Shown: in pieces, positions 1 to 50,601 of the stretch
How the letters are laid out: the number at the start of each line of letters is the position of its first letter
Position numbering within the stretch: position 1 is the stretch's first letter
Assembly (NCBI GenBank): GCA_964606085.1
Contig: CAZSFD010000001.1
Span: 199,795-263,794, forward strand
Source: an uncultured Anaerolineaceae bacterium
Lineage (GTDB): Bacteria; Chloroflexota; Anaerolineae; Anaerolineales; UBA4823
Direction of reading: 5' to 3'
DNA length: 64,000 bases
The notes under the pieces: generated by a model
The model's input: only the letters and a program-made list of their open reading frames with translations
What the model was told of the DNA's origin: nothing
Databases searched by the model: none
Position numbers and translations under genes: made by a program

Positions 1-485
1 GCCCGGGCGGCGGCCCCAAGGCCGGGTTCTTTGCCCTGCCCGATGTGGACGATGAAGTGCTGGTGGTCTTTGAACATGGCGATTTCAACCACCCCTTCGT
101 GTTGGGCGGCATCTGGAATGGCAAAGACCCCCTGCCGCCGAAATCGGACAGCGTGGGCGGCAATGAAATGCCGCAGGTGCGCACATGGTGTTCGCGCAAG
201 GGGCATCGCATCACCATGTACGATAATGCCGATAATAAAATCGAAATCGTCACCGCCGGCAACCAGCAAATTGTGATGGATGACGCCGGCAAGAAAATCA
301 CGGTCAAGACCAGCGGCGGCCTGTCGGTTACGATGGATGACAATGGCTCCAAAGTGAGCATCCAAAGCGGCAGCGAGGTGGAGATCAAAGCGGGCAGCAA
401 TCTCAAAATTCAGGCCAATGGCAACATAGACCTTCAGGCCAGCGGCATGGTCAACATCAAGGGAGCGACGGTCAACCTGAACTGA
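1..485 (+). CDS. VgrG/gp5-like central spike protein of a contractile injection system (C-terminal part; 5' end is upstream of the window)
   Basis: Frame is open from base 3 (PGGGPKAGFFALPDVDDEVLVVFEHGDFNHPFVLGGIWNGKDPLP), the conserved gp5/VgrG OB-fold end. It is followed by a beta-helix-like short-period repeat (KIEIVTAGNQQIVMDDAGKKITVKTSGGLSVTMDDNGSKVSIQSGSEVEIKAGSNLKIQANGNIDLQASG). Confidence 0.8.
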   Translation, partial: PGGGPKAGFFALPDVDDEVLVVFEHGDFNHPFVLGGIWNGKDPLPPKSDSVGGNEMPQVRTWCSRKGHRITMYDNADNKIEIVTAGNQQIVMDDAGKKITVKTSGGLSVTMDDNGSKVSIQSGSEVEIKAGSNLKIQANGNIDLQASGMVNIKGATVNLN

Positions 486-501
486 CGCTCAAGGAGGAAC
501 G

Positions 502-891
502 ATGCCCACACTGGTTACCAACGGCGCCATGCTGACGTGCAGCTTTGGCGTAGCCCCCAGTACGCTGACGGTTGTGCCAGCCAGCATGGTCAACGCCAGC
601 AACCTGCCGGCGGCAACGACGATGGATAACATTGCCATGACCAATATCATGCCTTTTGGCATGTGTACCACCCTCACCAACCCCCAGGTGGCTTCGGCCA
701 CGACTGCCGCATCGGGCGTGCTGACGCCGCAGCCGTGCATCCCCGTCACCACCGCCCCCTGGACGCCCGGCTCGCCCACCGTGATGATCGGTAAAAAGAT
801 GGCGCTGCAAAACACCTGTCAACTGATGTGTGCCTGGGGAGGCGTCATCACCATCACCAACGCCGGGCAGTTTACCGTCAATGTCCCCTAA
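502..891 (+). CDS. DUF4280-type (PAAR-like) spike tip protein
   Basis: 129 aa with GGAGG RBS 6 nt upstream. Pattern VTNGAMLTCSFG..P..L.V..., NIMPFGMC, PQPCIPVTTAPWTPGSPTVMIGKKMALQNTCQLMCAWGGVITITNAGQ matches the conserved Cys/Gly layout of DUF4280. Sits directly after VgrG. Confidence 0.75.
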   Translation: MPTLVTNGAMLTCSFGVAPSTLTVVPASMVNASNLPAATTMDNIAMTNIMPFGMCTTLTNPQVASATTAASGVLTPQPCIPVTTAPWTPGSPTVMIGKKMALQNTCQLMCAWGGVITITNAGQFTVNVP

Positions 892-895
892 AACC

Positions 896-924
896 GTAGC
901 GCAAATTTGAGATTTGCGCCACAA
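896..924. repeat. GCGCAA-type REP-like hairpin (gcgcaaat-ttgag-atttgcgc, followed by cacaa)
   Basis: Stem 899-906 / 912-919 read directly. Related copies at 29509-29549 and 44378-44465 share (t/g)agcgcaa...ttgcgccaca. Confidence 0.6.
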
Positions 925-942
925 TCAAAGAATGGATACATT

Positions 943-1344
943 ATGACCCATGAAATTATCGGGCGCGGCTGGACTTTCCCCCTGAAAATCAATTCGCAGG
1001 GCGGCATTGCGCTGACTTCTGAACGCAATGAGATCGAACAGGCGATGGTGATCATCCTCTCCACGGAGATCGGCCAGCGGGTGATGCGGCCCACCTTTGG
1101 CAGCCGCCTGCACGAACTGGTCTTCGCCCCCAACAACCAGCATACCCTGGCCCTGGCCCGGCGCTACACCGAAGAAGCCCTGCGCATGTGGGAGCCGCGC
1201 ATCACCAACCTCGACATCAAGGTCAGGCCCGACGAAACGCCCGCAAAAGAGTCGCGCCTGCTGATCGAAATTAACTACCAGGTGAAAGCGACCAACGATA
1301 AGCGCAGCCTGGTTTATCCGTTTTATTTACTGCCTGAAGAGTAG
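943..1344 (+). CDS. GPW/gp25-family baseplate wedge protein
   Basis: MTHEIIGRGWTFPL...IALSERNEIEQAMVIILSTEIGQRVMRPTFGSRLHELVFAPN is the gp25/GPW core motif. I prefer the ATG at 943 because the ORF-track start at 907 is a TTG inside the repeat hairpin. Confidence 0.85.
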   Translation: MTHEIIGRGWTFPLKINSQGGIALTSERNEIEQAMVIILSTEIGQRVMRPTFGSRLHELVFAPNNQHTLALARRYTEEALRMWEPRITNLDIKVRPDETPAKESRLLIEINYQVKATNDKRSLVYPFYLLPEE

Positions 1345-1409
1345 GGGCGGATAGCATTCGCCCGATTTATGACGCAATAGAAACCAATCACAACCAACCG
1401 GAGGCCTGC

Positions 1410-3416
1410 ATGCCCCTTCCCACCCCCAAACTCGATGACCGCCGCTTTCAAGACCTGGTTGATGAGGCCAAGAAACGCATCCCCCATTACTGCAAGGAGT
1501 GGACCGATCACAACGTCAGCGATCCGGGCGTGACGATGATCGAACTGTTCGCCTGGCTGACCGACCTGACCCTCTTTCGCCTGAACCAGGTGCCTGACCT
1601 GCATTACATCCGCTTTATGGATATGCTGGGTATCACCCTGCAGGAACCGCTGCCGGCCCAGACCGATGTCACCTTTTGGTTGACCAAACCACAAGAGACC
1701 GTCGCCCTCATCCCCGCCGGCACCGAAGTAGCCAGCACACAGACCGAAACCGAGCCATCCATCGTGTTCACCACCGACACCGATTTTCGCGTCCACCCGC
1801 CGCAATGGAACTGTGCCTTCTCCGAAATCACCGGTGAAGACCGCAGCAAGCATTTCGTCAGCCACAATCTCAAACGCCTGCAAACCGGTTTCGAGGGCTT
1901 CGAGGTGTTTTCGCGCACACCACTAATGGACGACGCACTCTATTTTGGCTTCGAAAACGATCTCAGCCATCACATTTTGGGCCTGGAGTTAGAATGCGAC
2001 CCGGCCGGCGGCACCGGCATTGACCCATCCTTCCCCCCTTATGTGTGGGAAGCCTCCACCGGCAGCCTGAAAGAAGCCTGGCAACCCTGCATCGTAGACA
2101 GCGATACCACCAAGGGCCTGAACCATCCGGGCAAAATTATTCTGCACCTGCCGCGCGTGGGCAAGAGCCAGATCAACAACAACGAAATGTTCTGGCTGCG
2201 CGTGCGCATTCAGGAAATTACCCCCGCCCTCAAACGCAATCACATGCAACCCTACCGCCTGACACCACGCATCGAAAAGGTGGCCATCGCCGCCTGGGGC
2301 GGCAGTGTGCCAGCCACACACGCCCAACTGATCAGCCAGGAAATGTTGGGGCGCAGCGATGGTTCGCCGGGGCAGCGCTTCCAGTTGCAAATGCCGCCCG
2401 TTCTAAAGCGCCGGCCAGGCGAAACCCTGGTGCTGCAACTCGAAGGCGAAGCTCCACAACCCTGGAAAGAAGTGCCCGATTTCGCCGATTCTGGCGCAGA
2501 AGACCGCCATTTCTGCCTCGACGGCGTCAGCGGTGAGGTGCGTTTTGGGCCAGCCATCCGCCAGCCCGATGGCACGATCAAGCTGTATGGCGCCATTCCG
2601 CCGCGCAGCGCCAATATCGTCTTCGAGCGCTACCGCCACGGCGGCGGACAAGAAGGCAACGTGGAAGCCGGTGTGCTCAACACGCTCAAGACCGCCATCC
2701 CCTACATCGAACGCGTGGTCAACCGCAAACCGGCCTATGGCGGCGTGGATGCCGAAACGCTCGAAGCTGCTATGGCGCGTGTGCCAGCGTTGCTGCGCTC
2801 ACGCCAGCGTGCGGTGACCGAAGCCGACTACGAATTTCTGGCCCGCCAGGCCCTGCCGGGGGCCATTGGCCGGGTGAAATGCCTGCAACCGCGTGCCGCC
2901 GAGGGCCGCGTGGCCGGGCGGGTAGACCCCAGCCTGGTGTATGTCCTGGTCATCCCGCGCATGAACTTTCCCGCGGGCCGCCTCGACCGCGAACTGCTCA
3001 AAATCAAACCGGAGGACAAAGCCACCCTGACCGCCTACCTGGATGAGCGCCGCCTGTTGACCACCCGCGTGGATGTGCGCGACCCGGCCTATTATTGGGT
3101 TTCGATAGAAGTGCAACTGCGCGCCGCCCCCAACGCCCAACCGACGAAAGTGGAGGCCGACGTGCTGGCGCGCCTGTACGCCTTCATCAACCCCCTCACC
3201 GGCGGGCCAGAGAAAAATGGCTGGCCCTTTGGCCGCTCCATTTACCTTTCAGACATTTATCCCTGCTTGCAGGGCATCGCTGATGTGTTGTTCGTGCGCA
3301 GCGTGGAAATGTACCCCGTACAAGAGGATGGCCGCCGCGGCAATCCGGTGGAATCCATCGAACTGGTGGCGCATGGCGTGGTCGCTTCAGCCTTGCATCA
3401 TGTGACGTTCGTATGA
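1410..3416 (+). CDS. Baseplate J (gp6/gpJ, Afp11-like) baseplate assembly protein
   Basis: 668 aa, GGAGG RBS. N-terminus LDDRRFQDLVDEAKKRIPHYCKEWTDHNVSDPGVTMIELFAWLTDLTLFRLNQVPD is the conserved opening of CIS baseplate-J proteins. Position after gp25 fits the Afp/PVC gene order. Confidence 0.85.
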   Translation: MPLPTPKLDDRRFQDLVDEAKKRIPHYCKEWTDHNVSDPGVTMIELFAWLTDLTLFRLNQVPDLHYIRFMDMLGITLQEPLPAQTDVTFWLTKPQETVALIPAGTEVASTQTETEPSIVFTTDTDFRVHPPQWNCAFSEITGEDRSKHFVSHNLKRLQTGFEGFEVFSRTPLMDDALYFGFENDLSHHILGLELECDPAGGTGIDPSFPPYVWEASTGSLKEAWQPCIVDSDTTKGLNHPGKIILHLPRVGKSQINNNEMFWLRVRIQEITPALKRNHMQPYRLTPRIEKVAIAAWGGSVPATHAQLISQEMLGRSDGSPGQRFQLQMPPVLKRRPGETLVLQLEGEAPQPWKEVPDFADSGAEDRHFCLDGVSGEVRFGPAIRQPDGTIKLYGAIPPRSANIVFERYRHGGGQEGNVEAGVLNTLKTAIPYIERVVNRKPAYGGVDAETLEAAMARVPALLRSRQRAVTEADYEFLARQALPGAIGRVKCLQPRAAEGRVAGRVDPSLVYVLVIPRMNFPAGRLDRELLKIKPEDKATLTAYLDERRLLTTRVDVRDPAYYWVSIEVQLRAAPNAQPTKVEADVLARLYAFINPLTGGPEKNGWPFGRSIYLSDIYPCLQGIADVLFVRSVEMYPVQEDGRRGNPVESIELVAHGVVASALHHVTFV

Positions 3417-4414
3417 AAGGGGGCGTTGTCATGGCTAACCCCACCTACACCCACATTTTCCACATCAGCGGGCCCGAAGAAACGACCAGCCAGTTTCAAA
3501 TCCCCATCGGCATCACCATCATCAGCCGCCAGGAGGGGGTGGGCCTGCACCTGGATAGCAAGTTCATCTCGCGCCGCCACGCCCGGCTGGAGTGCATTGA
3601 CACCGAATGCCATCTCACCGACCTGGGCAGCGAAAACGGCTCCTACATCAACGGTGAACGGCTAGAAGCGCAAACCCCCTACCTGCTGCAACACAACGAT
3701 CAGATCAAAATTGGGCCATTCACCCTGGTGGTCGAAAAAATAGCGCTTGCCGCGGTCGAAGAAGTGGCCGAAACGCCCGCCCCGCCGCCCGAACCCGTGG
3801 CCGCCGAAGAACTGCCCGGCGTGGCTGTGGCCGAAACACCCCCGCCGCCGCCACCGCCCAGCGAACCCCCCACCGCCGAGGCCCAGCCACCTGAAAAAGA
3901 TGCCTTCCTGCCGCCGCCCGGCCTGGGCCTCAAAAGCACCCGCCTGATCAATTACCTGCCAGGCATTTACTTGCCAGGCATTTACCAAAGCGATCTGCTG
4001 GCGCGCTTCCTGGGCATTTTCGAGGCCATTCTGACCCCCATCGAATGGAACATAGACAATTTCGACCTGTATCTTTCTCCCAAAACCTGCCCAAGCACGT
4101 TTTTACCCTGGTTGGCAACCTGGTTTGAGATAGAATTTGATGAAACCTGGAGCGAGGCCAAACGCCGCCAATTTTTGCAAGAAGCCCACCAAATCTACGC
4201 CGGACGCGGCACCCCGCGAGCGCTGCGCCGCACACTCGAAATTTACACCGGCCTCACCCCCACCATTGATGACACCAGCAACGATTTGGAGCCACATACC
4301 TTTCGTGTCTTCTTACCCGTACCCGAAAAAGATGTGCAGCGCACCACCATCGAAGCCCTGATCAACGCCCACAAACCGGCGCATACGGCTTATGAACTTC
4401 ACTTTCAAGAATAA
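3413..4414 (+). CDS. FHA domain fused to a phage tail protein I (gpI/Afp12-type) baseplate domain
   Basis: N-terminal FHA signature (ISRRHARLECIDTECHLTDLGSENGSYINGERL), a Pro-rich linker, then C-terminal YLPGIY..LLARFLGIFEAILTPIEWNIDNFDLYLSPKTCPSTFLPWLATWFEIEFDETWSEAKRRQFLQEAHQIYAGRGTPRALRRTLEIYTG (gpI-type domain). The ATGA overlaps the gpJ stop. An alternative start at 3431 has an AAGGGGG RBS. Confidence 0.75.
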   Translation: MKGGVVMANPTYTHIFHISGPEETTSQFQIPIGITIISRQEGVGLHLDSKFISRRHARLECIDTECHLTDLGSENGSYINGERLEAQTPYLLQHNDQIKIGPFTLVVEKIALAAVEEVAETPAPPPEPVAAEELPGVAVAETPPPPPPPSEPPTAEAQPPEKDAFLPPPGLGLKSTRLINYLPGIYLPGIYQSDLLARFLGIFEAILTPIEWNIDNFDLYLSPKTCPSTFLPWLATWFEIEFDETWSEAKRRQFLQEAHQIYAGRGTPRALRRTLEIYTGLTPTIDDTSNDLEPHTFRVFLPVPEKDVQRTTIEALINAHKPAHTAYELHFQE

Positions 4415-6554
4415 GCTCAAATCTCCTTTCGCACGGGAATTCCTCGTCATTCACATCCCCGATGGCCCCACCCGCCACGTTTCCCTGCGCGCCGCAACGC
4501 TCGAAATGGGTCGGGCAGAGGCCAACCAGATTGTCATAGACCATCCCTCCATCTCGCGCCGCCATGCCCGCCTCACCCGCCAGGGCGATGGCCTGCTGAT
4601 CGAAGACCTGGCCTCAGCCAATGGCACCTGGGTCAACGACCAGACCCTGCAACCCTACAAACCAGCCCCCATCGCCCGCGGGCAGTCCTTCTGGGTCGGA
4701 AAAGTAGAAGTTACCTACAAGCATCAAGATTTTACACTGCCGATAGTGGGCGTGTTCTTTGCGCTGCTATGCTGCTGCGCCGCCGTCCAACTGATCATCC
4801 GGCTGATCCCGCAGCCCGATGTGTTCGCCTGCGATGCACCCTCCATTTTGATCGTCCAGCCAGACCCTAACCAACGTCCCGCCGCAGCCGACGAACCCGC
4901 CCGGCCCACCGCCACCCGCCCCCCCACCGGGCCAACCCCCGCCGAAACGCAAGCAGCCGGCGAGCCAACCTCCGCCCCGCTCATCTTCACCGATGCGCTG
5001 ACCTACACCGTGCAAAACTTCTTCGATCTGCCCTTCCCCTACGCCGGCGACCGCAGCGAGTGTACCTACGGCACGCTCGAAGAGTTCCAACAGGCCAATC
5101 AGCGGCGCTACCTGGGCGGGCGCATCAACAGCTTCTTCGACCACTTCTACCCCAAATATCCCTACGACCCCGAACGCCAGGGCCGCGAAAGCCCCGACCC
5201 GCCCGAAGCCAAAAACCTGCTGCTGTTCACCGGCGAACTGAGCGCCAACGACGATTACAGCGGCCACCCCGGTTACGATTACTCGTATGAATACACCACC
5301 AGCGAGGGAAAGTACACCACACCCGTGTGCGCGGCCGCCAATGGCATCATCGCCGCGGTCGGAGGTGACGAGCAGGTTGGGCTGTATGTCAAGATCAATC
5401 ACTTCGCCAGGGTCAACGGCGTCAGCTATCGCTATCAAACCTTTTACTTGCACCTCAAACAAGATGAATTTTTCGATCAGATGCTCGGCCGAGAAGGCCA
5501 AATCATCAACGTCCACGAGCGCATTGGCACCATCGGCAACACCGGGCCATCCACCGGGCCGCACCTGCACTTCGAGGTGCGCGCCGATCTGAACAACGAC
5601 AATCGCTTCGATCTGAGCGAAGTGGTGGACCCCTATGGCTACATCCCCAGCCGCGAATACCCGGTGGACAAATGGCCGCGTCCCAGCGACTACCTGTGGA
5701 TTCATCCGTGGGGAGTTTTCCAGTCTATTGAAGGCAATGCCCAAAGCAACGCCGGCGCCGAAAAAGGCATCGGAGGCGAGTTTGCGGCGGCGGTGAGCCG
5801 GCCCGCCCGTCTGTGCGCTCCGCCCAACGCTCTGCCATCGGGCGGGTTGATCAGCTTCTCCATTTCGCTCTCCCCGCCACCGGCAGATGGGCTGATCAGC
5901 ATCGGTCGAGCGGCGATCATTGCCGTGATGAACCAGGGGCAATTTATCGAAACCTTCGCCGAGCCAGTGCGGGTGATGATCCCCTTTCCCAAAACCGAAC
6001 TGGATTACGTCAAAGATAACGAACGCCTGCGCATCTACCGCCTGCAAACCACCCAACAAGCCGATAAAGATGTATCGGTGTGGATTGCGCTGCAAACCGA
6101 ACTGGATCGCGAACATGCCGTCGCCATGGCCTACACCGACAGCCCCGGCCAATTTGCCCTGCTGGGCGAAGCCACCCAAGATACCTACCCCCCCACCACC
6201 GAGATCACCCTGGATGGCCCACAAAGCCCCGAGGGCACCTTCTACGCCAATGTCACGGTCAGCTTAGCGGCCACCGACGGCCAAAGCGGGGTAGACTCGA
6301 TCTATTACAGCCTGGATGGCCGCAACTGGCTGCTGTATAGCGAGCCATTTGTGATCTCGCCCAACGGCATCCCCGAAGCACTGCCAGAGACAGAAGATGA
6401 ATCTTTTCTGGGCGGGCCGGGCCGCTTTCAGGTGCTGGCCTCAGCCACCGATAAGGCCGGTAACAGCGAGGAGCAGCTCAAAGGCAAGCCGGCAGCCGTT
6501 TACTTCATCATTGACCCGCGCAAAGAACCCCAAAGAGGCTATCACTGGAGGTAA
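4392..6554 (+). CDS. FHA - TM - M23 (lysostaphin-type) metallopeptidase membrane protein
   Basis: FHA motif (GRAEANQIVIDHPSISRRHARLTRQGDGLLIEDLASANGTWVND) and one hydrophobic helix (LPIVGVFFALLCCCAAVQLIIRLI). M23 zinc motifs HxxxD (GHPGYDYSY) and HxH (GPHLHFEV). C-terminal beta-sandwich-like motif (YYSLDGRNWLLYSEPFVI). Confidence 0.8.
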   Translation: MNFTFKNKLKSPFAREFLVIHIPDGPTRHVSLRAATLEMGRAEANQIVIDHPSISRRHARLTRQGDGLLIEDLASANGTWVNDQTLQPYKPAPIARGQSFWVGKVEVTYKHQDFTLPIVGVFFALLCCCAAVQLIIRLIPQPDVFACDAPSILIVQPDPNQRPAAADEPARPTATRPPTGPTPAETQAAGEPTSAPLIFTDALTYTVQNFFDLPFPYAGDRSECTYGTLEEFQQANQRRYLGGRINSFFDHFYPKYPYDPERQGRESPDPPEAKNLLLFTGELSANDDYSGHPGYDYSYEYTTSEGKYTTPVCAAANGIIAAVGGDEQVGLYVKINHFARVNGVSYRYQTFYLHLKQDEFFDQMLGREGQIINVHERIGTIGNTGPSTGPHLHFEVRADLNNDNRFDLSEVVDPYGYIPSREYPVDKWPRPSDYLWIHPWGVFQSIEGNAQSNAGAEKGIGGEFAAAVSRPARLCAPPNALPSGGLISFSISLSPPPADGLISIGRAAIIAVMNQGQFIETFAEPVRVMIPFPKTELDYVKDNERLRIYRLQTTQQADKDVSVWIALQTELDREHAVAMAYTDSPGQFALLGEATQDTYPPTTEITLDGPQSPEGTFYANVTVSLAATDGQSGVDSIYYSLDGRNWLLYSEPFVISPNGIPEALPETEDESFLGGPGRFQVLASATDKAGNSEEQLKGKPAAVYFIIDPRKEPQRGYHWR

Positions 6555-9121: not shown

Positions 9122-9127
9122 GCAATC

Positions 9128-10381
9128 ATGGATTACCCCATGCAGCCACAACAAATTGATCGCTACCAGGTACAGGCAGAAATCGCCCGCGGCGGCATGG
9201 CGATTATTTACCTGGCCTACGACCCGCAAAACCAGCGCCAGGTGGCAATCAAGGTGTTGCCGCGCGAATACTTGATGGATCGTCAATTTCGCGTGCGCTT
9301 CCAACGCGAGATCGAGATCATGGTAGCCATCCGGCATTCGGGCATCGTGCCGATTTATGGCTACGGGCAATACCAGGGCCAGCTTTACCTGGTGATGCGC
9401 TACATGGCCGGCGGCTCGCTGGATGACCGCCTGCAAAAACAGGGCAGCATGTCGTTGGCCGAAACCGCCGCGCTGATCGAACAGATTGCCCCCATTCTCG
9501 ATTTCGCCCATTCCCAGGGGATCATTCACCGCGATTTGAAACCGGGCAACATCTTGTTCGATACCCAGGGCAAAGCCTTTATCAACGATTTTGGCATCGC
9601 CCGGCTGACCGAGCAATCGAACTATGCCGCGCTGACCGGCAAAGCGCTGATCGGCTCACCGGCGTACATGAGCCCCGAACAGGGGCGCATTGGCCTGAAT
9701 GTGGATGCCCGCAGCGACATTTACTCGGTGGGCGCGATGGTTTTTGAGATGCTGACGGGGCAGCTTCCGTATGACGCCGAAAGCGCAATGAAGCTGGTAA
9801 TGAAGCATCTGACGGACCCCATCCCGAACATCCTGGCGTTGAACCCGGCCTTACCCCCGTCGTGCCAGGCGATCATCGAAAAAGTGCTGGCCAAAGAGCC
9901 TGAGCAGCGTTACGCCAGCGTTTCAGAACTGGCCGCAGCCCTGCGCCAGGCGGTTAATGCGGGCAGCCGGGCCGCCGCAGCCTACCCATCTACCCCGCCG
10001 CAAGGGCCGCGCCAGCCCCGGGACGCCGCGCCGCCGGTAAGCCGACCAGCCAGCCAGCCGGTTAGCCGACCAGCCCCGGGGTCAGCGAAGCCAGCCGGCA
10101 TACGACTGCCCTCGTTTCTCAATTCATTTCGCCACGCCATCTTGCAGCAGTTTCGCATGCCGCGGCTGCTCGGTGGGCCAGCGCTGCCTTACATCACCCT
10201 GCCATCCTTCCTGCGCCCCATCACCAGCGCCCTGGGAATTTCGAGTACGATCAGCCTGCCCGGCAACAAGCTCTGGTTAGGGCTGGCCGTGCTGATCGCC
10301 GTGGCGGTGCTGCTCGTTCTGTGCGGCGGGGTGATGGCAAGCTGCTACATCCTTTTTCGTATTTTTGCCACGCCTATCTAA
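9128..10381 (+). CDS. Ser/Thr protein kinase, C-terminally membrane anchored
   Basis: ARGGMAIIYLA, VAIKVL, HRDLKPGNILF, DFGIAR, GSPAYMSPEQ. Pro-rich spacer and terminal hydrophobic helix (LWLGLAVLIAVAVLLVLCGGVMASCYILF). Confidence 0.85.
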   Translation: MDYPMQPQQIDRYQVQAEIARGGMAIIYLAYDPQNQRQVAIKVLPREYLMDRQFRVRFQREIEIMVAIRHSGIVPIYGYGQYQGQLYLVMRYMAGGSLDDRLQKQGSMSLAETAALIEQIAPILDFAHSQGIIHRDLKPGNILFDTQGKAFINDFGIARLTEQSNYAALTGKALIGSPAYMSPEQGRIGLNVDARSDIYSVGAMVFEMLTGQLPYDAESAMKLVMKHLTDPIPNILALNPALPPSCQAIIEKVLAKEPEQRYASVSELAAALRQAVNAGSRAAAAYPSTPPQGPRQPRDAAPPVSRPASQPVSRPAPGSAKPAGIRLPSFLNSFRHAILQQFRMPRLLGGPALPYITLPSFLRPITSALGISSTISLPGNKLWLGLAVLIAVAVLLVLCGGVMASCYILFRIFATPI

Positions 10382-10403
10382 TCACTTGCAAAGGGTTATC
10401 ACC

Positions 10404-12665
10404 ATGAAAAACGCTTCACTCGTCCACCGCCTGATACTCGCGACATTTGCCATCCTGCTCCTGCTGCTGCCGCACCCCACCGCCGCCCAGAGCGAGGTGC
10501 GAGCGTACATCAGCAGTGTAGATTGCTCTGCCTTTCCCACGATCAGCCTGACCGTGCGGGCGGTGGATGCGCAAGGACGGGTGATCACCGATAACCTGGA
10601 TACCGCCTCGTTTGCCCTGTTCGATAATGCCACCCAGGTGACCCAACCGGCCGTTATGGCTACCGAGACGGGGGCAAAGCACGTCATCTTTTCCGTTGAC
10701 CGGCGCGGCGAAAACACCAACCTGGAAAAATACCAGGCGGCGATCCGCAATATCATGAGCGAATTTACCAGCCAGTATGTGATTGACGACACCGACATCG
10801 TCAGCATCGTCTCGCACATCTCTGGCAGCAAACCCGATGTGGTGCTGCAACCCACCAGCAACAAAACCGACGTGCTGAATGCCATCAGCGCGCTGTCCTT
10901 CGCCCGCATCAGCGGGACAAAAAGCGACTTAAGCGGGCTGGAGGCCGTTTTTAACGATCTGGTGACACAAAAACCCGGGCGGCGAAACACGGTCATCTTC
11001 CATTTCAGCCGCTTTCTCGAAACCCCCTCCGCTCCCCTGCAACAGGTAGACCCGGCCAAGAACCTGGGCGCCAAAATGGCCAGCGAAAATATCCGCGTCT
11101 ACACCTTCCAGACCGAAACATCTGGCGACGCGCGCTTTTACCGCGCCTTTCAAGAACTGGCCGCCAGCAGCCAGGGCGCTTACCTGCTGATTGATAAACC
11201 CGGCTACGAAGGCGAACTGGCCCGCATCTTCCGCGAGGTCGAACAGGGCAGCAAGGTCTTCCGGCTGCAATTCACCAGCACCGCATACGTGGCCGACCAC
11301 ACCATCAGCCTGGCCGCCCCCGGCGCAGGCCCCGAACGGGCCATGGACTCACGCACTTGCATCGGCATAGACATTCAAGACCCCCAGGTCGCTTTCGATT
11401 ACCCGCCCAACAGCCCCGGCCTGAAAATCCAGTTGAAGCCCGACGACACCTCCATCACCGTCCGGGCGCATGTAGATTGGCCCGATAAAAAGCCACGCAC
11501 AATAACCACGGCGGAGTTATTGGTGAACGGCACGGTCATCGAAACCAAAACCGATCTGCCGCCCACCGACCCCCTGTATTTCATTGTCAGCACAGACGAT
11601 CTCCTGGCCTCCAAGTCGCTGGCGAACATTGCCCTCGAAGTGCGCGTGGCCGATGCCTGGGGGCGCAGCGCCTCCAACTGGGTCAGCTTCGACCTCAGCG
11701 CCGCGCCGACCCCGGTCGTCACACCCACGGCAGCGCCCCGGCCAACCACGGAAGGGCCGGTAATCGTGGTTGCGCCTGGCGCGTGTGATGAAGGCTTATC
11801 GGTCAATTGCATCAAAGCGTGGGTGATCTCCAACTGGATTTTATTGCTGATCCTGGTGGTGGTCGGTGGGATGTTCCTGGTAATGTTCATCTTGCTCATT
11901 GCCACCCGCCACCAACTGGCCAAACTCTCTGCCCCGGCGCGCGAGGCCATTGGCAAACGCGCCGCCCAGGTGCGCGACCAGGTGCGCAAAACCCTGCTGG
12001 GCGGGGCCTCGCACCAGCAGCAAGCCGTGGCCTACCTGAATGTGCTGGTGGCGCGCAGCGACCGCGTTGGCTCGAAAATCGAAATTTACAACAACCGCAC
12101 CACCCTCGGGCGCGACCCCTCGCTGACCGATGTGCAGCTCTACAACCCCGAAGATAAAACCAGCGTCAGCGGCCTGCACTGCACCATTTTTTACGACCCC
12201 GGCCAGGGCAAATTCTTCATCACCGATGATAACTCAACCAATGGCAGCTTCCTGAACGGCAAGCGCCTGCCCTCCAACGAGCCGCACGAACTGAAAGAGA
12301 ATGATGAGATTACGCTGGGCGATATTTACCGGCAAGGCGCCAAGCTGCGCTTCGAACTGGCCGCCGGGCAGCCGGCGCACTCCATCGAAGATGAAATGAT
12401 CCCTATCGAAAATGACTTCAATGTAGATTTGGATGGCTCGGGGTCTTACGCCAACGAAGTGACCCAGGCCGCCGTCGATTCGATGCCGCCACCGCCCCCT
12501 CCCCAACCCAAGAAAGAAATGTCTGATGAAACCATCCCCGGCTATCGCGACGAAGACATCCTTTCTTACCCTGAACAACCCGCTGCGCCCCCGCCAGGCC
12601 GCCCGGCCAACAAACCGCCGCAGAAAAAAGGCAAAGATAAAAGCTGGATAGATGACCTGAGCTAA
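10404..12665 (+). CDS. Signal peptide - vWA-like ectodomain (degenerate MIDAS) - TM - cytoplasmic FHA protein
   Basis: N-terminal signal (LILATFAILLLLLPHPTAAQS). Beta-sandwich plus vWA-like layout (ISSVDCSAFPTISLTVRAVDAQGRVI... VIFSVDRRGEN in place of DxSxS). TM helix (WILLLILVVVGGMFLVMFILLIA). C-terminal FHA (TTLGRDPSLTDVQLY...VSGLHCTIFYDPGQGKFFITDDNSTNGSFLNGKRL). Start taken at the ATG after the upstream stop. Confidence 0.7.
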   Translation: MKNASLVHRLILATFAILLLLLPHPTAAQSEVRAYISSVDCSAFPTISLTVRAVDAQGRVITDNLDTASFALFDNATQVTQPAVMATETGAKHVIFSVDRRGENTNLEKYQAAIRNIMSEFTSQYVIDDTDIVSIVSHISGSKPDVVLQPTSNKTDVLNAISALSFARISGTKSDLSGLEAVFNDLVTQKPGRRNTVIFHFSRFLETPSAPLQQVDPAKNLGAKMASENIRVYTFQTETSGDARFYRAFQELAASSQGAYLLIDKPGYEGELARIFREVEQGSKVFRLQFTSTAYVADHTISLAAPGAGPERAMDSRTCIGIDIQDPQVAFDYPPNSPGLKIQLKPDDTSITVRAHVDWPDKKPRTITTAELLVNGTVIETKTDLPPTDPLYFIVSTDDLLASKSLANIALEVRVADAWGRSASNWVSFDLSAAPTPVVTPTAAPRPTTEGPVIVVAPGACDEGLSVNCIKAWVISNWILLLILVVVGGMFLVMFILLIATRHQLAKLSAPAREAIGKRAAQVRDQVRKTLLGGASHQQQAVAYLNVLVARSDRVGSKIEIYNNRTTLGRDPSLTDVQLYNPEDKTSVSGLHCTIFYDPGQGKFFITDDNSTNGSFLNGKRLPSNEPHELKENDEITLGDIYRQGAKLRFELAAGQPAHSIEDEMIPIENDFNVDLDGSGSYANEVTQAAVDSMPPPPPPQPKKEMSDETIPGYRDEDILSYPEQPAAPPPGRPANKPPQKKGKDKSWIDDLS

Positions 12666-12674
12666 CGCTTGCAT

Positions 12675-13598
12675 ATGGCAGAAACGTACATTGGCAATTT
12701 CGTGGTCGAAAAAACGCTCTCGAAGAGCGGTATGTCGTATATCTACCTGGCGCGCCTGGCCGAACAACCCAACTACAAAGTGGCCCTGAAGATTCACCTG
12801 GAAAGCGAAGGCCCGCGCAACACCTATCAAGATTTACTGCGCCACGAAGCCGAGCATCTGGCCCATTTCAGGCATCCCAACATCATGCGCGTTTTCCCCC
12901 TGCAACTGCCCACCGGCAAGGTGGTCTATTGCGCCCGCGCCACCGATTTACCCGAAAACCCGTGGTATTTCACCATGGAATATATCCCCGGCGGTGATCT
13001 CAGCAAATACATCAAGAACTTCACCAAAATGCCCATCCCCTGGATCATCGAATTTTTCTACCAACTGCTCATCACCGTCAAATACATTCATCAAATGGGA
13101 TACGGACATTGCGACCTGAAGCCGGAGAACATCCTGCTGCGTGAGCCGCCCAGCCCCCTGCGCACGCCCCAACCCATCCTGACCGACTTCGGCACGGCGC
13201 AGCGCGTGGAAGACATCATTGCCCAGCCGACCCGCTCCCTGCGCTACTCGCCGCCCGAAATCATCATGGCGTACACCCGCAAAGACATCGAAGCCAAAAA
13301 TTTCCCCCTGTATGCCGCCAAAATAGACATCTGGTCGTTGGGCGCGCTGCTCTTCGAGCTGCTCACCGGGCAGCAATTGTTCAGCCAGCGCAAAGAAGCC
13401 GAAATCACCTCGTCCATTTTGCGCGGCGAACTGCGTAAAATTCAAACGCTGCGCCGCGAGGCGCACGAATCGCTCGATAAAGTGCTCAGCGTCATGCTGC
13501 AAACACAGCCAGAAGAGCGCCCCGAAATTGACGACATCATCGAGGCTATCGAAGAGCGCATCAGCAGCGTCAGGCCGCCGCGCATCCCGCTGGCCTGA
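12675..13598 (+). CDS. Soluble Ser/Thr kinase-like protein (non-RD, degenerate Gly loop)
   Basis: VALKIH, GHCDLKPENILL (HCD instead of HRD), DFGTAQ, YSPPEI. The glycine loop reads LSKSGMSYIY. No TM segment. Confidence 0.75.
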   Translation: MAETYIGNFVVEKTLSKSGMSYIYLARLAEQPNYKVALKIHLESEGPRNTYQDLLRHEAEHLAHFRHPNIMRVFPLQLPTGKVVYCARATDLPENPWYFTMEYIPGGDLSKYIKNFTKMPIPWIIEFFYQLLITVKYIHQMGYGHCDLKPENILLREPPSPLRTPQPILTDFGTAQRVEDIIAQPTRSLRYSPPEIIMAYTRKDIEAKNFPLYAAKIDIWSLGALLFELLTGQQLFSQRKEAEITSSILRGELRKIQTLRREAHESLDKVLSVMLQTQPEERPEIDDIIEAIEERISSVRPPRIPLA

Positions 13599-13631
13599 AA
13601 AAATTATCCGCTTTGGATAGGGAGAAGCATC

Positions 13632-15773
13632 GTGGCGAAAATAATCATCGATTCACATTATGACATCGGCGGACACCGCGAAGTATACGAAGACCGCGTG
13701 CGGGCGCGCCCCGTGACCACCGCCGCCGGGCTGAAATTGATGGTGGCAGCCGTGGCCGACGGCGTGGGCGGCGAAAACAAAGGCGAGCGCGCCTCGCAAA
13801 CCACCATAGACGCCCTCTTCAACTACCTGGAAAAAAGCCGCGAAACCGCCCTGCCCGCCTTGTTGACCCAGGCCGTGCAATATGCCAACAAAGCCACCTT
13901 TCAACTGCAACGCGAAACCAGCGGCGCCAGCACAACCCTGGCCGTGGCCGTGGTAGATGAGGCCACGGCAAAGCTGTACATTGCCAACGTCGGCGACAGC
14001 CGCATCTACCTGTGCCGCAACCGCAAGCTGACCCAATTGACCATAGACCACTCGTGGGCAACCGTCATGGCCTGGCAAGGCAAAATCAGCGCCGAAGCCG
14101 CCCGCGACCACCCACGCGCCAACGTCCTCATGCGCGCCATCGGGCCGCGCGAGCAGGTGGAGGTAGACCTGGGCTTCTACGTTGGCACCAGCGACTACGC
14201 AGAAGCCAACGAACGCGGCCAGGGCGGCCTGCCCTTGCTCGATGGCGACGCCATCCTGGTCTGTTCTGACGGCCTGATCAAAGACTCGCCCCAAACCGGC
14301 GAACCCCTGATCAGCAAAGAAGAGATCATTCGCACCGTTACCGAAAAAGAAGGCAAGAAGGCCGCTCAGGAGTTGGTTTCGTTTGCCCTGGGCCGCGGCC
14401 CCGATGACAACATTTCGGCCGCCCTGATCCAGATGCCCGACCGCTGGCGCACCTGGCGGGCGCGCCGCCCGATGCTGATCGCCGGAGGTGTCATCTTTGC
14501 GCTGGCAATTGTTCTGTGCGTGGCCGTCGCGGCTTTGCTCATTACCCAAAGAACGCTGCAAACGCTCTCGCAAGAGCAACAAGCGGCTACGGCGCAGGCC
14601 GCAACCGTGGCCGCCTACACCGCTACACCTTCCGATACCCCCACGCCCTCCAACACACCCACCGTCACCTTCACCCCATCGCCCACGCTCAAACCCTTCG
14701 TGGCCGGGCAGGCCGGCGTCATCGTCAGTCAAAATGGCGATGCCTTCTTCCTGAAATCACCCCTGCAGGCCAAAGAACAGGAGGACATGGTCTTGCTGAT
14801 TTTCCACCGCGAAGGGTACAGCAGCAACCCGGGCTATCTCCACGCCCTGCCGGGAAGCCTGTTACAGATGAATACCATTGATGACCAGGCCTATCAGTTC
14901 TTCGTCTCGCAAGCGAGCCATGTGTTTGTCGAAAACGGCAGTTACGCCCTGGGCGAACTGCAGCTTGCCCGCTCCAATCTCACTTTGCGCGTCGAAGGCT
15001 CGTGCCTGGCATTAGATTACCCCGCAAACGAGCGCGCCATCGTCAGTTGCTATGCCGGCACCTGCACCTACGACGCCCTGGGCGGAGGTTCTGGCAGCAT
15101 CGCCCCCGGCACACAACTGCTCTTCTCCGGGCCAGACCTCGACGCCGGCGAGGCGCAAGCCATCCCCGAAGCCGAGGCGCGCCAGTGGGCCAGCCGCCTG
15201 CCGGTGGGCAGCCTGGCCTACGATTGCGCCAACCAATATATCCCCACGCCCACACCCACCCGCCCGGCCGCCAAACCTCCCACCCAAAAAGAACCCGATG
15301 AGCCGGGCCACAATCCCGATCCCACCAACACGCCCATCCCTGCCTCCAACACCGCCAAACCGCCAAACACCAACACACCCAGACCGGCAAACACCAACAC
15401 GCCCGCCAAAGCCCCCACCAACACAACCGCCGCCACGAAAACCACCGCCCCCACCCAAACACCCAAACCCGCCACGGCGACGACAACCCCCAAGGCAAGC
15501 ACCCCCACCGCCACCGCCAAGAACACCGCCACACGAACCGCCGTCCCCAGCCCTACACAAACCCCGCAACCCACGGCCACACCAACGTCACAACCATCCA
15601 ACACCCCCGAAACACCCACCGAAGTTCCACCTACCGAAGTTCCACCCACCGATGTCCCCCCCACCGACGTTCCCCCAACTGCTACCACTGAAGCGCCGCC
15701 TCCTATTGAAACGGATGACGTGCCAAAACCAAGCGATACACCTACCACAGACGAACCGCCGAAAGATGGATAG
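13632..15773 (+). CDS. PP2C-family Ser/Thr phosphatase - TM - ectodomain with Thr/Pro-rich tail
   Basis: GTG start with GGGAGA RBS. PP2C motifs (YEDR, AVADGVGGENKGERAS, NVGDSRIYL, VCSDGL, DDNISA). TM helix (MLIAGGVIFALAIVLCVAVAALLI). The tail has 15-bp tandem repeats encoding TEVPPTEVPPTDVPPTDVPP (about 15615-15680). Confidence 0.85.
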   Translation: MAKIIIDSHYDIGGHREVYEDRVRARPVTTAAGLKLMVAAVADGVGGENKGERASQTTIDALFNYLEKSRETALPALLTQAVQYANKATFQLQRETSGASTTLAVAVVDEATAKLYIANVGDSRIYLCRNRKLTQLTIDHSWATVMAWQGKISAEAARDHPRANVLMRAIGPREQVEVDLGFYVGTSDYAEANERGQGGLPLLDGDAILVCSDGLIKDSPQTGEPLISKEEIIRTVTEKEGKKAAQELVSFALGRGPDDNISAALIQMPDRWRTWRARRPMLIAGGVIFALAIVLCVAVAALLITQRTLQTLSQEQQAATAQAATVAAYTATPSDTPTPSNTPTVTFTPSPTLKPFVAGQAGVIVSQNGDAFFLKSPLQAKEQEDMVLLIFHREGYSSNPGYLHALPGSLLQMNTIDDQAYQFFVSQASHVFVENGSYALGELQLARSNLTLRVEGSCLALDYPANERAIVSCYAGTCTYDALGGGSGSIAPGTQLLFSGPDLDAGEAQAIPEAEARQWASRLPVGSLAYDCANQYIPTPTPTRPAAKPPTQKEPDEPGHNPDPTNTPIPASNTAKPPNTNTPRPANTNTPAKAPTNTTAATKTTAPTQTPKPATATTTPKASTPTATAKNTATRTAVPSPTQTPQPTATPTSQPSNTPETPTEVPPTEVPPTDVPPTDVPPTATTEAPPPIETDDVPKPSDTPTTDEPPKDG

Positions 15774-15907
15774 ACTTGTTCCTGAATAACGATGAAGGTC
15801 TTTCCGTCCTTCGTGCTGGCGAGAAATTGCTGTGGCAAACGAATCATTAGCTGCTGAAGCGGTTTCACAGCAAGATAGAGGACGGAAAAACCTGGCTGGC
15901 TTATAAA

Positions 15908-15938
15908 GGCCGCTCGCCCCTGCTCGAGCGGCCTTTTT
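15908..15938 (+). terminator. Rho-independent terminator closing the CIS/FHA/kinase unit
   Basis: ggccgctcg (15908-15916) pairs with cgagcggcc (15925-15933), followed by ttttt. Confidence 0.7.
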
Positions 15939-36758: not shown

Positions 36759-36784
36759 GTAGGGCGAAATTAATTTCGCCCTAC
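36759..36784. repeat. 26-bp perfect palindrome GTAGGGCGAAATTAATTTCGCCCTAC (copy 2)
   Basis: Identical to 31317-31342. Overlaps the stop codon (36781-36783, minus strand) of the carotenoid oxygenase gene. Confidence 0.9.
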
Positions 36785-38205
36785 AGGTCAAAATAGGCCC
36801 CGTGGTAGCCGAATAGCACGGGTTGGGGCAACTCGGCGCGGGCGAGCTCGTCGAGGGTGTGGGCGTCGAGGACGAGCAGGAAGGAGATGCCGCGCCGGGC
36901 GTCCAACACCACGGAGAGCAGCACACCATCATCTTTCAGGGCCGCGCCGGGCCGGGGGACGAAGATCGCCTCGCCGGGGTAGCAGTCATCGGCAAACCAG
37001 GCGGCGGCGTGGCGGGCGTAGGTGTCCACTTTCACAATCTGGTTGTAAAAGCCTTCGGGTTTGTCGGGGCGCAGGCTGGCGGCGTAGACGTAGCGGTAGT
37101 CGCCGCGGGTGTTGTAGGCGGGGTAATCGAAGTTGGGCAGTTCCATGCAGGCATCGGAGAGGGTTTCGTAATCGGCCGTTTTGCCGTTCAAGGGGATGTG
37201 GTAGCGCCGCAGGTTGCCGTGCGGGAGGGGCTGCGAGCCGTCTTGCAGGCGGTCGAGATAATAGGCTTGCAAGATGCCAGCATCGGGGTAAGCAACGATG
37301 TCCACGAACAGGTCGTCGCCCTGCTCGAAGGCGTTGACGTGGTGGAAGGCGAAAAAGGCTGCGGCCTCGTAGCGTCCGCGCAGTTGGCCGGTGGCACGCT
37401 CTACCACCCAAAAGCGCGTCCCCCGCCCCGGCTGCCAGCGGTAATTCTCGATGTAGGGCCTGCGCCACAACAACAGGTCGAGCGGATTGACCACCAGGGG
37501 AAATTCCGCCAGAATAAAGTAGCGTGCAGACATGCCAAAACTGTGTAGATAGGCTGGTTGGCTCACCGGCAGTGAGGCTAGAAGAATTTTTTGTTTATGT
37601 TGTGCAATTTGGTAAACGTTATAGTGGCTACGCGCATGAAAACGCGTTACCAGGTTATATGCCGTGCGCCGGTCAAAATCAAAATGCGGGTGGACGGTGG
37701 TCATCTGGCCGGTAAGGTTATCTTCGTAAGTGAAGACGCCTACGGTGGCGAGGGTCTCGGGGTCAAATTCAATCTGGATCGGCGTTTCGGCCAGCGCCAG
37801 ATATTTTCCCGCCATCAGTGCCACGCTGACCTTGGCGCTATCGGTTATGCGCGTGTCGGTGGGATCGAAATAGCTGTTCACCCGGTCGAAGAGCGTTCGG
37901 CAGGGGTCGGTGGCAAATTCGGAATAAGTAATCCGCCCAGTTTCCTGGGCGGCGCGATATGCCTTGGTTTGCAGAAATTTATTGGCGTACGCCACAGCCC
38001 CGCCCCGCATCGTGAAGCGGTGCAGCATCGCCAGGCCATCGAACCAGTGGCGGTAGCGCTGCTGACCGGCCTGAAATGTCCCTGGCCCGTTGCGGATCAG
38101 CGTGCCGTTCAGCCATTCGGGCAGCTTGCCGCGCACCGGAAGCGAAGCGATGGAGATTTCGAGCGTGGGCTTTTCGAACCCGAGAGGGAAGTAGGAGGTG
38201 GACAT
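36781..38205 (-). CDS. Carotenoid cleavage oxygenase (RPE65/CCO family)
   Basis: GKLPEWLNGTLIRNGPGTFQAGQQRYRHWFDGLAMLHRF, conserved His positions (HPHFD, FHHVNAF, LFGYHGAYF). Confidence 0.85.
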   Translation of the reverse strand: MSTSYFPLGFEKPTLEISIASLPVRGKLPEWLNGTLIRNGPGTFQAGQQRYRHWFDGLAMLHRFTMRGGAVAYANKFLQTKAYRAAQETGRITYSEFATDPCRTLFDRVNSYFDPTDTRITDSAKVSVALMAGKYLALAETPIQIEFDPETLATVGVFTYEDNLTGQMTTVHPHFDFDRRTAYNLVTRFHARSHYNVYQIAQHKQKILLASLPVSQPAYLHSFGMSARYFILAEFPLVVNPLDLLLWRRPYIENYRWQPGRGTRFWVVERATGQLRGRYEAAAFFAFHHVNAFEQGDDLFVDIVAYPDAGILQAYYLDRLQDGSQPLPHGNLRRYHIPLNGKTADYETLSDACMELPNFDYPAYNTRGDYRYVYAASLRPDKPEGFYNQIVKVDTYARHAAAWFADDCYPGEAIFVPRPGAALKDDGVLLSVVLDARRGISFLLVLDAHTLDELARAELPQPVLFGYHGAYFDL

Positions 38206-38218
38206 GGAGAGTGTTTCG

Positions 38219-49155: not shown

Positions 49156-50601
<1,446 letters not shown>

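Follow-up and report, generated by a model that had tools for sequence, protein, structure and literature searches.

The stretch of DNA analyzed here, a 64-kb window numbered along its forward strand, begins with a run of eleven tightly packed plus-strand open reading frames (ORFs) that extends from position 1 to 15773 and that we call ORF1 to ORF11 in order. The first five encode baseplate and spike proteins of a contractile injection system (CIS). The other six form a signaling block containing three forkhead-associated (FHA) domains, three Hanks-type kinases, one PP2C phosphatase, one M23 peptidase, and a vWA-like domain. A fourth FHA domain lies within the baseplate set itself, fused to the wedge protein gpI (Cis12). 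Judged from its sequence, the locus is a subtype IId CIS with a phospho-signaling module wired into the baseplate.

ORF1 (positions 1-485, called as a partial frame at 3-485) is the C-terminal end of a VgrG-like spike protein (Cis8/Afp8; Phage_base_V, E = 7.5e-11) whose gene starts upstream of the window. It is followed by a DUF4280 PAAR-like spike tip (ORF2, 502-891; PF14107, E = 3.3e-35) and a gp25-like sheath initiator (ORF3, Cis9/Afp9, 943-1344; GPW_gp25, E = 2.4e-25). The gp25 gene has an alternative TTG start at 907; the 133 amino acid (aa) protein called on the JGI contig described below corresponds to the ATG at 943. ORF4 (1410-3416) encodes the gpJ/Cis11/Afp11 baseplate wedge protein (Baseplate_J, E = 6.9e-17), which has a full-length match to a solved Cis11 chain, 9gtp_1K. 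ORF5 (3413-4414) contains an FHA domain (E = 1.2e-16) and a Tail_P2_I, or gpI, domain (E = 1.5e-18) in a single frame, and we refer to its product as the FHA-Cis12 fusion.

FHA domains are phosphothreonine readers. In ORF5 the FHA domain occupies aa 11-112 and is joined by a proline-rich, disordered tether (aa ~113-176) to the gpI/Cis12 wedge domain (aa 177-333). The AlphaFold2 confidence score (pLDDT) was about 97 for the FHA domain and above 90 for the Cis12 domain, falling to about 50-60 in the tether. Foldseek matched the FHA domain to the phosphopeptide-binding FHA domains of FhaA, GarA, and DgcB, with TM-scores of up to 0.92, and the Cis12 domain to the 9GTP baseplate. Of the Cis12 FHA residues that would contact phosphothreonine, R39, R54, H56, and N75 do not vary in an alignment of 115 sequences, and S53 is kept in at least 90% of them. 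All four FHA domains in the window keep the GR...SxxH...N pattern, as read from the sequence; all four also match the Pfam model Yop-YscD_cpl.

The fusion is not peculiar to this window. More than 1100 clusters at 90% identity match the FHA-Tail_P2_I architecture and, after clustering at 50%, most of the best 150 representatives match it in a single stretch from the FHA through Cis12. Relatives are encoded in 196 GTDB species genomes. The best 80 of these come nearly all from Chloroflexota metagenome-assembled genomes, most of them labeled Anaerolineae, Anaerolineales, Ardenticatenaceae, or Promineifilaceae. The FHA-Cis12 fusion is a large Chloroflexota family, and the host of the window probably belongs to the Anaerolineae within that phylum.

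Downstream of the fusion, ORF6 (4392-6554; FHA, E = 3.6e-17; Peptidase_M23, E = 9.8e-15) is predicted to have a cytoplasmic FHA domain, a transmembrane (TM) helix at aa 118-136, an extracytoplasmic M23 peptidoglycan endopeptidase, and a C-terminal domain; the HxxxD and HxH motifs of the peptidase read as intact. ORF7 (6554-9121; Pkinase, E = 2.4e-48; FHA, E = 6.2e-16; Ig-like matches to Cep192_D3/FixG_C) encodes a receptor kinase, K7, in which a Hanks kinase is followed by an FHA domain, two cytoplasmic Ig-like domains, a TM helix at aa 690-708, and a short ectodomain. ORF8 (9128-10381) encodes a tail-anchored Hanks kinase, K8 (Pkinase, E = 3.5e-50; TM at aa 386-404). ORF9 (10404-12665, with an alternative start at 10365) is predicted to carry a signal peptide, an extracytoplasmic vWA-like region, a TM helix at aa 479-497, and a cytoplasmic FHA domain (E = 3.4e-18). 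ORF10 (12675-13598, alternative start 12669) is K10, a soluble non-RD (HCD) Hanks kinase (Pkinase, E = 1.1e-36); VALK, HCDLKPEN, and DFG can be read from its sequence. Finally, ORF11 (13632-15773; PP2C_2, E = 1.1e-11; PP2C, E = 2.1e-10; SpoIIE, E = 2.9e-8) has a cytoplasmic PP2C domain that keeps the Asp-rich metal motifs, a TM helix at aa 286-304, an ectodomain, and a Pro/Thr-rich tail.

All three kinases retain the catalytic lysine (VAxK), the H[RC]D-x-K-x-x-N loop, and D[FL]G. The predicted topology places the kinase, FHA, and PP2C domains in the cytoplasm, together with the Ig pair of ORF7, and the M23, vWA-like, and other C-terminal domains outside. A first-pass annotation of the window, made from the sequence alone, had named the baseplate set of VgrG, DUF4280, gp25, gpJ, and gpI and had counted four FHA domains, three kinases, a PP2C, and an M23 peptidase; our Pfam search agrees. 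Hydropathy likewise gives a TM helix in five of the six signaling proteins, as that annotation had predicted: one each in ORF6, 7, 8, 9, and 11 and none in ORF10. Its vWA-like domain needs a qualification. In ORF9 the VWA and VWA_2 matches are below threshold (E = 2-4e-4), and the domain is recognized in 9 of 10 ORF9 orthologues, all 10 of which have the FHA.

The eleven frames are joined by overlaps of 4, 23, and 1 nucleotides (nt) or separated by gaps of at most 65 nt, and the ORF listing reproduces the junctions reported in the first-pass annotation. The operon is closed by an intrinsic terminator at 15908-15938 on the plus strand, a hairpin GGCCGCTCG...CGAGCGGCC followed by TTTTT, which that annotation had also pointed out. 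We identified it by eye and by folding: none of 200 shuffles reached its folding energy of -26.8 kcal/mol (z = -4.2). It was missing from the output of the consensus terminator scanner, whose total for the sequence was no higher than for shuffles (28 vs 23.2 +/- 4.6). Within 1-15773 the scanner found no strong plus-strand terminator, and hence none dividing 1-4414 from 4392-15773, a division that had been raised as a possible sign of two separate units. The 23-nt overlap of ORF5 and ORF6 (4392 vs 4414), together with a sole strong terminator 3' of the PP2C gene, implies that the CIS and signaling genes are tightly coupled.

The genes that precede VgrG could be recovered from other assemblies. 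The gpJ protein is identically encoded on a 34.5 kb JGI metagenome contig (L001/L082), and a 270 kb NCBI contig is also on record as carrying the FHA-gpI and cap proteins of the locus. Two differences separate the JGI contig from the window across 13.4 kb: a single substitution (window 8723) and a 4-nt homopolymer indel. Its upstream genes, identified by Pfam, are all on the same strand as the window block. They include an AAA+ ATPase with WHD and AAA domains (L082 584-2764), a 551-aa protein with a weak peptidoglycan-binding match, a 1371-aa effector candidate with a C-terminal Endonuclea_NS_2 domain (4420-8535), a 172-aa protein, an eCIS_core (DUF4157) protein (9112-9984; E = 1.6e-32) that follows it, and a Pvc16_N cap with a CarboxypepD_reg domain (10001-10846). 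After the cap come, in order, the sheath, a gp19 tube, two small genes, a second gp19 tube, an 887-aa protein, a CIS_tube initiator, and the full 538-aa VgrG (Phage_GPD plus Phage_base_V). Thus, the sheath, tube, ATPase, and cap genes that the first-pass annotation had suggested looking for upstream are all there. The locus is a complete single-strand CIS cluster of about 34 kb, of which the window holds the 3' half; the idea that it might be a decayed remnant is ruled out by the sheath, tubes, cap, ATPase, and eCIS_core gene on this near-identical contig.

Two further observations concern these proteins. In the cap, Pvc16_N (DUF4255) is fused to a CarboxypepD_reg / CarbopepD_reg_2 beta-sandwich, an architecture shared by more than 2300 homologues. 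In the proline-rich linker of ORF6, a C7 homopolymer (window 4919-4925, plus strand) reads C3 on the JGI contig, where the gene is broken in two, one part encoding an FHA-TM protein of 201 aa and the other an M23 protein of 514 aa. This difference could reflect either a homopolymer assembly error or a phase-variable tract; in loci L002 and L072, as in the window, the ORF6 orthologue is a single frame.

What kind of CIS does this cluster encode? When the sheath was compared with all Protein Data Bank sequences, its closest match was the sheath of the Streptomyces coelicolor CIS, or CISSc (8BKY/9GTP; E = 4e-134), well ahead of the cyanobacterial thylakoid-anchored CIS (tCIS), PVC, Afp, and AlgoCIS. 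Similarly, gpJ aligned end to end with CISSc Cis11 (9gtp_1K; E = 5.9e-148), and the C-terminal half of a family profile of FHA-gpI matched CISSc Cis12 (9gtp_E; E = 8e-18). Sheath, tubes, tube initiator, VgrG, PAAR-like tip, gp25, gpJ, and gpI all lie in one cluster, as do the Afp16-type (Pvc16_N) cap, an Afp15-type AAA+ ATPase, and the DUF4157/eCIS_core gene. Pfam scans of the region between Cis12 and the terminator revealed no fiber-like gene corresponding to the tail fiber, Afp13. CISSc is a subtype IId, tail-fiber-less CIS that is free in the cytoplasm (PMC12237407). Ranked by similarity rather than placed on a tree, the present locus is a CISSc-like subtype IId CIS, its nearest solved relatives all being CISSc chains. 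By analogy with the imaging of Streptomyces and Roseiflexus, its particles are probably also tail-fiber-less and cytoplasmic.

The families TssB/C, Hcp, TssK, TssJLM, and ClpV of type VI secretion systems (T6SS) did not appear in the Pfam scans of the locus, which were not a search aimed at Tss genes. In contrast to a T6SS, the sheath belongs to Phage_sheath_1, the tube to Phage_T4_gp19, and the wedge to Baseplate_J/Tail_P2_I. The first-pass annotation had called the locus a non-T6SS CIS; this stands, and the closest solved relative can now be given as the Streptomyces cytoplasmic CIS. The CISSc wedge is made of two Cis11 subunits and one Cis12 (PMC12237407). With one Cis12 per wedge, as in CISSc, each baseplate of the present system would carry six FHA readers.

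We compared the neighborhood of the fusion across its relatives by locating matches to the proteins of the window and of its upstream region among the six-frame ORFs of 80 loci, the best 80 of the 196 relatives. Adjacency was counted in the 63 species-level loci with at least 3.5 kb of sequence downstream of FHA-gpI, within a region limited to 10 kb. The FHA is fused to gpI in 62 of the 63, and a same-strand Hanks kinase lies within 6 kb of FHA-gpI in 61; in 50, a kinase and an FHA share one ORF. The first-pass annotation had proposed checking whether the CIS and kinase genes stay together in related genomes, and they clearly do. Nor is this a reflection of kinase genes being common in these regions. 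Across the 80 loci, the density of kinase ORFs is 0.230 per kb over the first 6 kb downstream of FHA-gpI but 0.009 per kb upstream of it and 0.015 per kb farther downstream, a local enrichment of 15-25-fold. In the remaining 48 kb of the window there are no kinase ORFs.

The usual gene order in these loci is sheath, tube, two small genes, tube, (large protein), tube initiator, VgrG, (DUF4280), gp25, gpJ, FHA-gpI, and kinase-FHA. Beyond the kinase, the other same-strand genes in a Pfam census were mostly ABC transporters, solute-binding proteins, and response regulators. Because the genes past the kinase or kinases are of this housekeeping type, the conserved core is FHA-Cis12 plus the receptor kinase.

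In about 50 related loci the gene directly 3' of FHA-Cis12 is an orthologue of K7. These proteins share the plan kinase-FHA-two Ig-TM-ectodomain, with the TM helix at about residue 650-780 in 46 of 50. Their ectodomains vary and include TSP3 repeats, SH3b, beta-propellers, or carbohydrate-binding modules. This bears on the SH3b-like domain that the first-pass annotation had assigned to ORF7: Pfam gives no match in the ORF7 C terminus, and SH3_3 is present in the ectodomains of 13 of 48 orthologues and in the homologue P0241. Only 2 homologues came back when the C-terminal 416 aa of ORF7 served as the query. Between kinase and FHA, the K7 orthologues also have a motif, V-S-L-[MLV]-T-Q-[YL]-[QE], often followed by RGpSvL.eF. 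Its threonine is a candidate autophosphorylation or FHA-docking site in the orthologues, and we do not use it as support for the present locus.

A second module follows the fusion in 9 loci and consists of a BTAD gene, a vWA-TM-FHA gene, a soluble kinase, and a long kinase. The K10 kinase is paired with a vWA-FHA gene in 9 related loci. The window is unusual in that it combines the K7 and vWA-FHA/kinase modules with the FHA-TM-M23 peptidase, found in 3 other loci, and with PP2C, found in 2. As a separate observation, the variant in which BTAD, vWA-TM-FHA, a soluble kinase, and a kinase of about 900 aa follow FHA-gpI occurs at L007:11255-21005 and in L003, L011, L014, L016, L018, L020, L040, and L052. 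Five of these loci (L003, L016, L018, L040, and L052) continue with an FHA gene on the opposite strand, and L007 continues on the plus strand with a gene for an FtsK/SpoIIIE ATPase, a family to which the motor ATPases of type VII secretion belong.

How might a phospho-signaling module act on a cytoplasmic particle? In Streptomyces, cisA lies just downstream of the baseplate genes, and the bitopic membrane protein CisA is required for both the firing of CISSc and its membrane association (PMC12237407). CisA is the only firing factor known there, with its signal and its baseplate contact unresolved (PMC12237407). By analogy, the receptor kinase of the present locus holds the gene slot, and plausibly the role, of CisA. 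We propose that an envelope signal would activate the membrane kinases, which would phosphorylate their own threonines or those of partner proteins in the membrane. These phosphothreonines would be bound by the tethered baseplate FHA domains, and the free cytoplasmic particles would thereby be recruited to the membrane and licensed to fire. PP2C would reset the switch, and the FHA-anchored M23 endopeptidase might couple the same signal to local cleavage of peptidoglycan.

Parts of this proposal deserve different degrees of confidence. That the kinase/FHA module has some direct functional coupling to the CIS we consider highly probable. The first-pass annotation had suggested that the CIS is controlled by Ser/Thr phosphorylation, and the fusion and the conserved synteny lend that suggestion support. 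We lean, with modest conviction, toward the more definite idea that threonine phosphorylation gates the docking or firing of the baseplate; each phosphorylation, docking, and firing step is one that we infer. More tentative still is the full version, which we would put somewhat short of an even chance: that the Cis12 FHAs read the output of a dedicated receptor kinase, that docking is the trigger, and that an extracellular CIS (eCIS) lineage has independently invented the logic of the T6SS and replaced CisA. That version would also provide the first defined pathway from signal to firing for a cytoplasmic CIS in multicellular filamentous bacteria.

Several observations weigh against phosphorylation-gated docking or firing. 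Only FHA-Cis12 and K7 are broadly conserved: the M23 protein is found in 3 loci, the vWA-FHA/K10/K8 module in 9, and PP2C in 2, and a dedicated phosphatase is not general to these loci within the 10 kb covered. The threonine of the VSL[ML]TQ[YL][QE] motif, conserved in 45 of 47 K7 orthologues, is absent from ORF7 of the window at the equivalent position (aa ~300-312). In about 18 of 62 loci there is no gpJ within 7 kb upstream of FHA-gpI. In the loci examined, this gap is filled by cargo-like genes, encoding giant proteins whose ends are of the M35, HNH, HhH, or nuclease type, eCIS_core-like proteins, YbjN, and CHAP; as a candidate reading, we take cargo to have been inserted between gpJ and gpI, with the structural genes lying past the 10 kb fetched. 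Finally, imaging of Roseiflexus, which shares this gene arrangement, showed CIS particles lying in the cytoplasm without an anchor (PMC12998442). This last point implies that docking, if it occurs, would be conditional or transient, as has been proposed for CisA.

The giant proteins merit a description of their own. They are 1000-1700 aa long and share an 'Apolipoprotein-like' helical middle, with C-terminal ends that include Aspzincin_M35, HhH, HNH_4, and Endonuclea_NS_2. Examples are at L007:426-9999, L003:4885-8766, and L020:2-8732, in L014 and L052, and at L082:4420-8535. In some relatives they sit between gpJ and FHA-gpI along with YbjN-like and eCIS_core-like genes; in the present locus the giant protein is at the 5' end. 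From their sequences they look like a polymorphic family of CIS effectors with a cargo insertion slot.

The same fusion and synteny could also mean that phosphorylation controls assembly, a possibility that we consider unlikely. According to this alternative, a kinase complex would mark a site on the membrane, and FHA-Cis12 would nucleate first the baseplate and then sheath and tube, so that particles are built in place. It is helped by the wedge protein being an early component of assembly, and the T6SS (PMC3953482 and related papers) offers a precedent, as with the Fha1 foci of the Pseudomonas aeruginosa H1-T6SS. However, the CIS of Streptomyces (PMC12237407) and Roseiflexus (PMC12998442) assemble free in the cytoplasm, with no membrane contact, and Streptomyces Cis12 assembles without an FHA.

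It is less probable again, and we doubt, that the FHA domains are phospho-independent scaffolds like those of YscD in type III and EssC in type VII secretion systems, with the kinases and PP2C regulating something else, such as envelope growth. The match of all four window FHAs to the Yop-YscD_cpl model would fit such scaffolds, as would the rarity of a dedicated phosphatase in related loci. The canonical phosphothreonine-binding residues are nevertheless invariant or nearly so in the Cis12 FHA, and are kept in all four FHAs of the window. The best structural matches, FhaA, GarA, and DgcB, are bona fide phosphothreonine binders, and the most constant neighbor of the fusion is a kinase. These features argue for phosphothreonine reading and not for scaffolding.

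We regard as very improbable the notion that 4392-15773 is an independent operon merely lying beside the CIS genes, whether for envelope and cell-division signaling, as its FHA, FHA, kinases, and PP2C content, resembling the actinobacterial FhaA/FhaB-PstP-PknA/PknB set, might suggest, or for anti-phage defense, as matches of the kinase domains to the PADLOC models PD-T4-6, mad6, and Stk2 might: one FHA is fused to a CIS structural protein, a kinase adjoins the fusion in 61 of 63 loci with a 15-25-fold local enrichment, the CIS and signaling halves overlap by 23 nt, and Pfam finds no PASTA, RodA, or penicillin-binding protein (PBP) genes in the block. The defense-system reading was rejected: the PADLOC matches are confined to the generic kinase domains, about 280 aa each, of ORF7, 8, and 10, and ORF5, 6, 9, and 11 have no PADLOC match.

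The association of FHA domains with CIS loci has a prior record. In Supplementary Data 10 of Geller et al. (2021), the FHA family PF00498 is enriched in eCIS loci with an odds ratio of 5.6 and a false discovery rate of 4.6e-13; the entry, with 35 occurrences in 4 phyla, is labeled 'Regulatory'/'Shell' (PMC8213781). Their locus table lists afp11, FHA+Tail_P2_I, a methyltransferase, and two Pkinase+FHA genes in Roseiflexus sp. RS-1 and R. castenholzii, and their main text covers GerE, BTAD, and histidine kinases only, with no FHA-Cis12 fusion, Ser/Thr kinases, or mechanism (PMC8213781). FHA domains and kinases are never mentioned in the CisA paper (PMC12237407) or in the Roseiflexus paper, which annotates structural genes only (PMC12998442). 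The papers that our literature search retrieved for CIS or eCIS in combination with FHA, forkhead-associated, or kinase all concerned the T6SS. The first-pass annotation had taken the arrangement to be undescribed. This is correct insofar as the literature searched contains no text that discusses it, and incorrect insofar as it is listed in the Geller et al. supplement: the FHA/kinase-CIS arrangement is catalogued but uninterpreted. It also reaches beyond the mostly Anaerolineae-labeled loci that we fetched, to Roseiflexus. The T6SS precedent, and the presence of the association in a public supplement, temper any surprise.

The fusion bears on the long-standing question of when and where cytoplasmic, tail-fiber-less CIS fire by pointing to a specific contact, between the Cis12 FHA and a phosphothreonine, and to a specific enzyme, the adjoining receptor kinase that is conserved across about 60 sampled species. 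The question is directly testable, since the arrangement is also present in cultured Roseiflexus castenholzii, whose CIS have already been purified and imaged. If the proposal is true, phospho-control of contractile machines is not confined to the T6SS. The ectodomains (SH3b, TSP3, vWA, and M23) would be candidate sensors linking the state of the envelope to regulated cell death in filamentous Chloroflexota, organisms that are abundant in activated sludge and microbial mats.

Elsewhere in the window, three regions drew our attention. At 16096-18645, starting 158 nt past the operon terminator, lies a gene for an 849-aa UvrA-like protein with two ABC_tran domains and a UvrA_DNA-bind domain; this protein may be a UvrA paralogue and seems to have no connection with the CIS. 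On the minus strand at 36781-39751, an RPE65-family carotenoid oxygenase gene adjoins a gene of the flavin amine-oxidase/phytoene-desaturase type, which suggests a small carotenoid-cleavage pair. Also on the minus strand, a gene at 49156-50424 joins an N6_N4 DNA methylase to a RAMA domain and sits beside a region of lower GC content (0.51-0.55 at 50-60 kb) that may be a mobile or restriction-modification island.

Set against known systems, the signaling block differs from the actinobacterial FhaA/FhaB-PstP-RodA-PbpA-PknA-PknB cluster in having neither a PASTA kinase nor SEDS/PBP genes; by Pfam, PASTA, FTSW_RODA_SPOVE, and transpeptidase domains are absent from ORF6-11 and from the ectodomains of the K7 orthologues. 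The likeness to T6SS control is closer. Threonine phosphorylation there runs through PpkA/PppA/Fha1 in P. aeruginosa and PpkA-TssL-Fha in Agrobacterium (PMC3953482). Both there and here, a contractile machine is accompanied by a membrane Hanks kinase with an outer sensor (vWA in PpkA), a PP2C phosphatase, and an FHA reader. Unlike these systems, the CIS of the window belongs to the Phage_sheath_1/gpJ/gpI lineage, has a Chloroflexota host, and is accompanied by several kinases, and its FHA domains are fused to Cis12, to M23, to a kinase, and to a vWA protein, whereas the Fha1 of the T6SS is free-standing.

The nearest comparison within the phylum is Roseiflexus. Particles of the Chloroflexota/Deinococcota branch of the CISSc clade have been imaged inside R. 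castenholzii cells (Gaisin et al., ISME J 2026, PMC12998442). The two loci share the phylum, the IId lineage, and the order afp11 - FHA+Tail_P2_I - (methyltransferase) - Pkinase+FHA - Pkinase+FHA. They differ in that a methyltransferase gene separates Cis12 from the kinases in Roseiflexus, where the rows listed include no M23, vWA-FHA, or PP2C. This intervening gene (RoseRS_1668 / Rcas_2812), located in each of the two Roseiflexus genomes between FHA-Tail_P2_I and the two kinase-FHA genes and lacking from the window, encodes Methyltransf_31 and MethyTransf_Reg domains (PMC8213781). More broadly, the Tail_P2_I, BTAD, CarboxypepD_reg, DUF4280, and Endonuclea_NS_2 domains that Geller et al. also count among the shell domains (PMC8213781) are all seen in this locus family.

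With CISSc itself (Casu et al. 2023; eLife 2025, PMC12237407), the locus shares the cap, sheath, tubes, VgrG, gp25, Cis11, Cis12, and AAA+ ATPase modules and probably the lack of a tail fiber, and in both the gene immediately past the baseplate set encodes a bitopic membrane protein. The differences lie at the proposed point of control. Streptomyces Cis12 is a protein of 190 aa with no FHA, and CisA has a disordered cytoplasmic N terminus and an outer domain resembling solute-binding proteins, with no kinase or FHA. Here, by contrast, the CisA slot holds FHA-M23 and kinase-FHA membrane proteins, together with a PP2C phosphatase.

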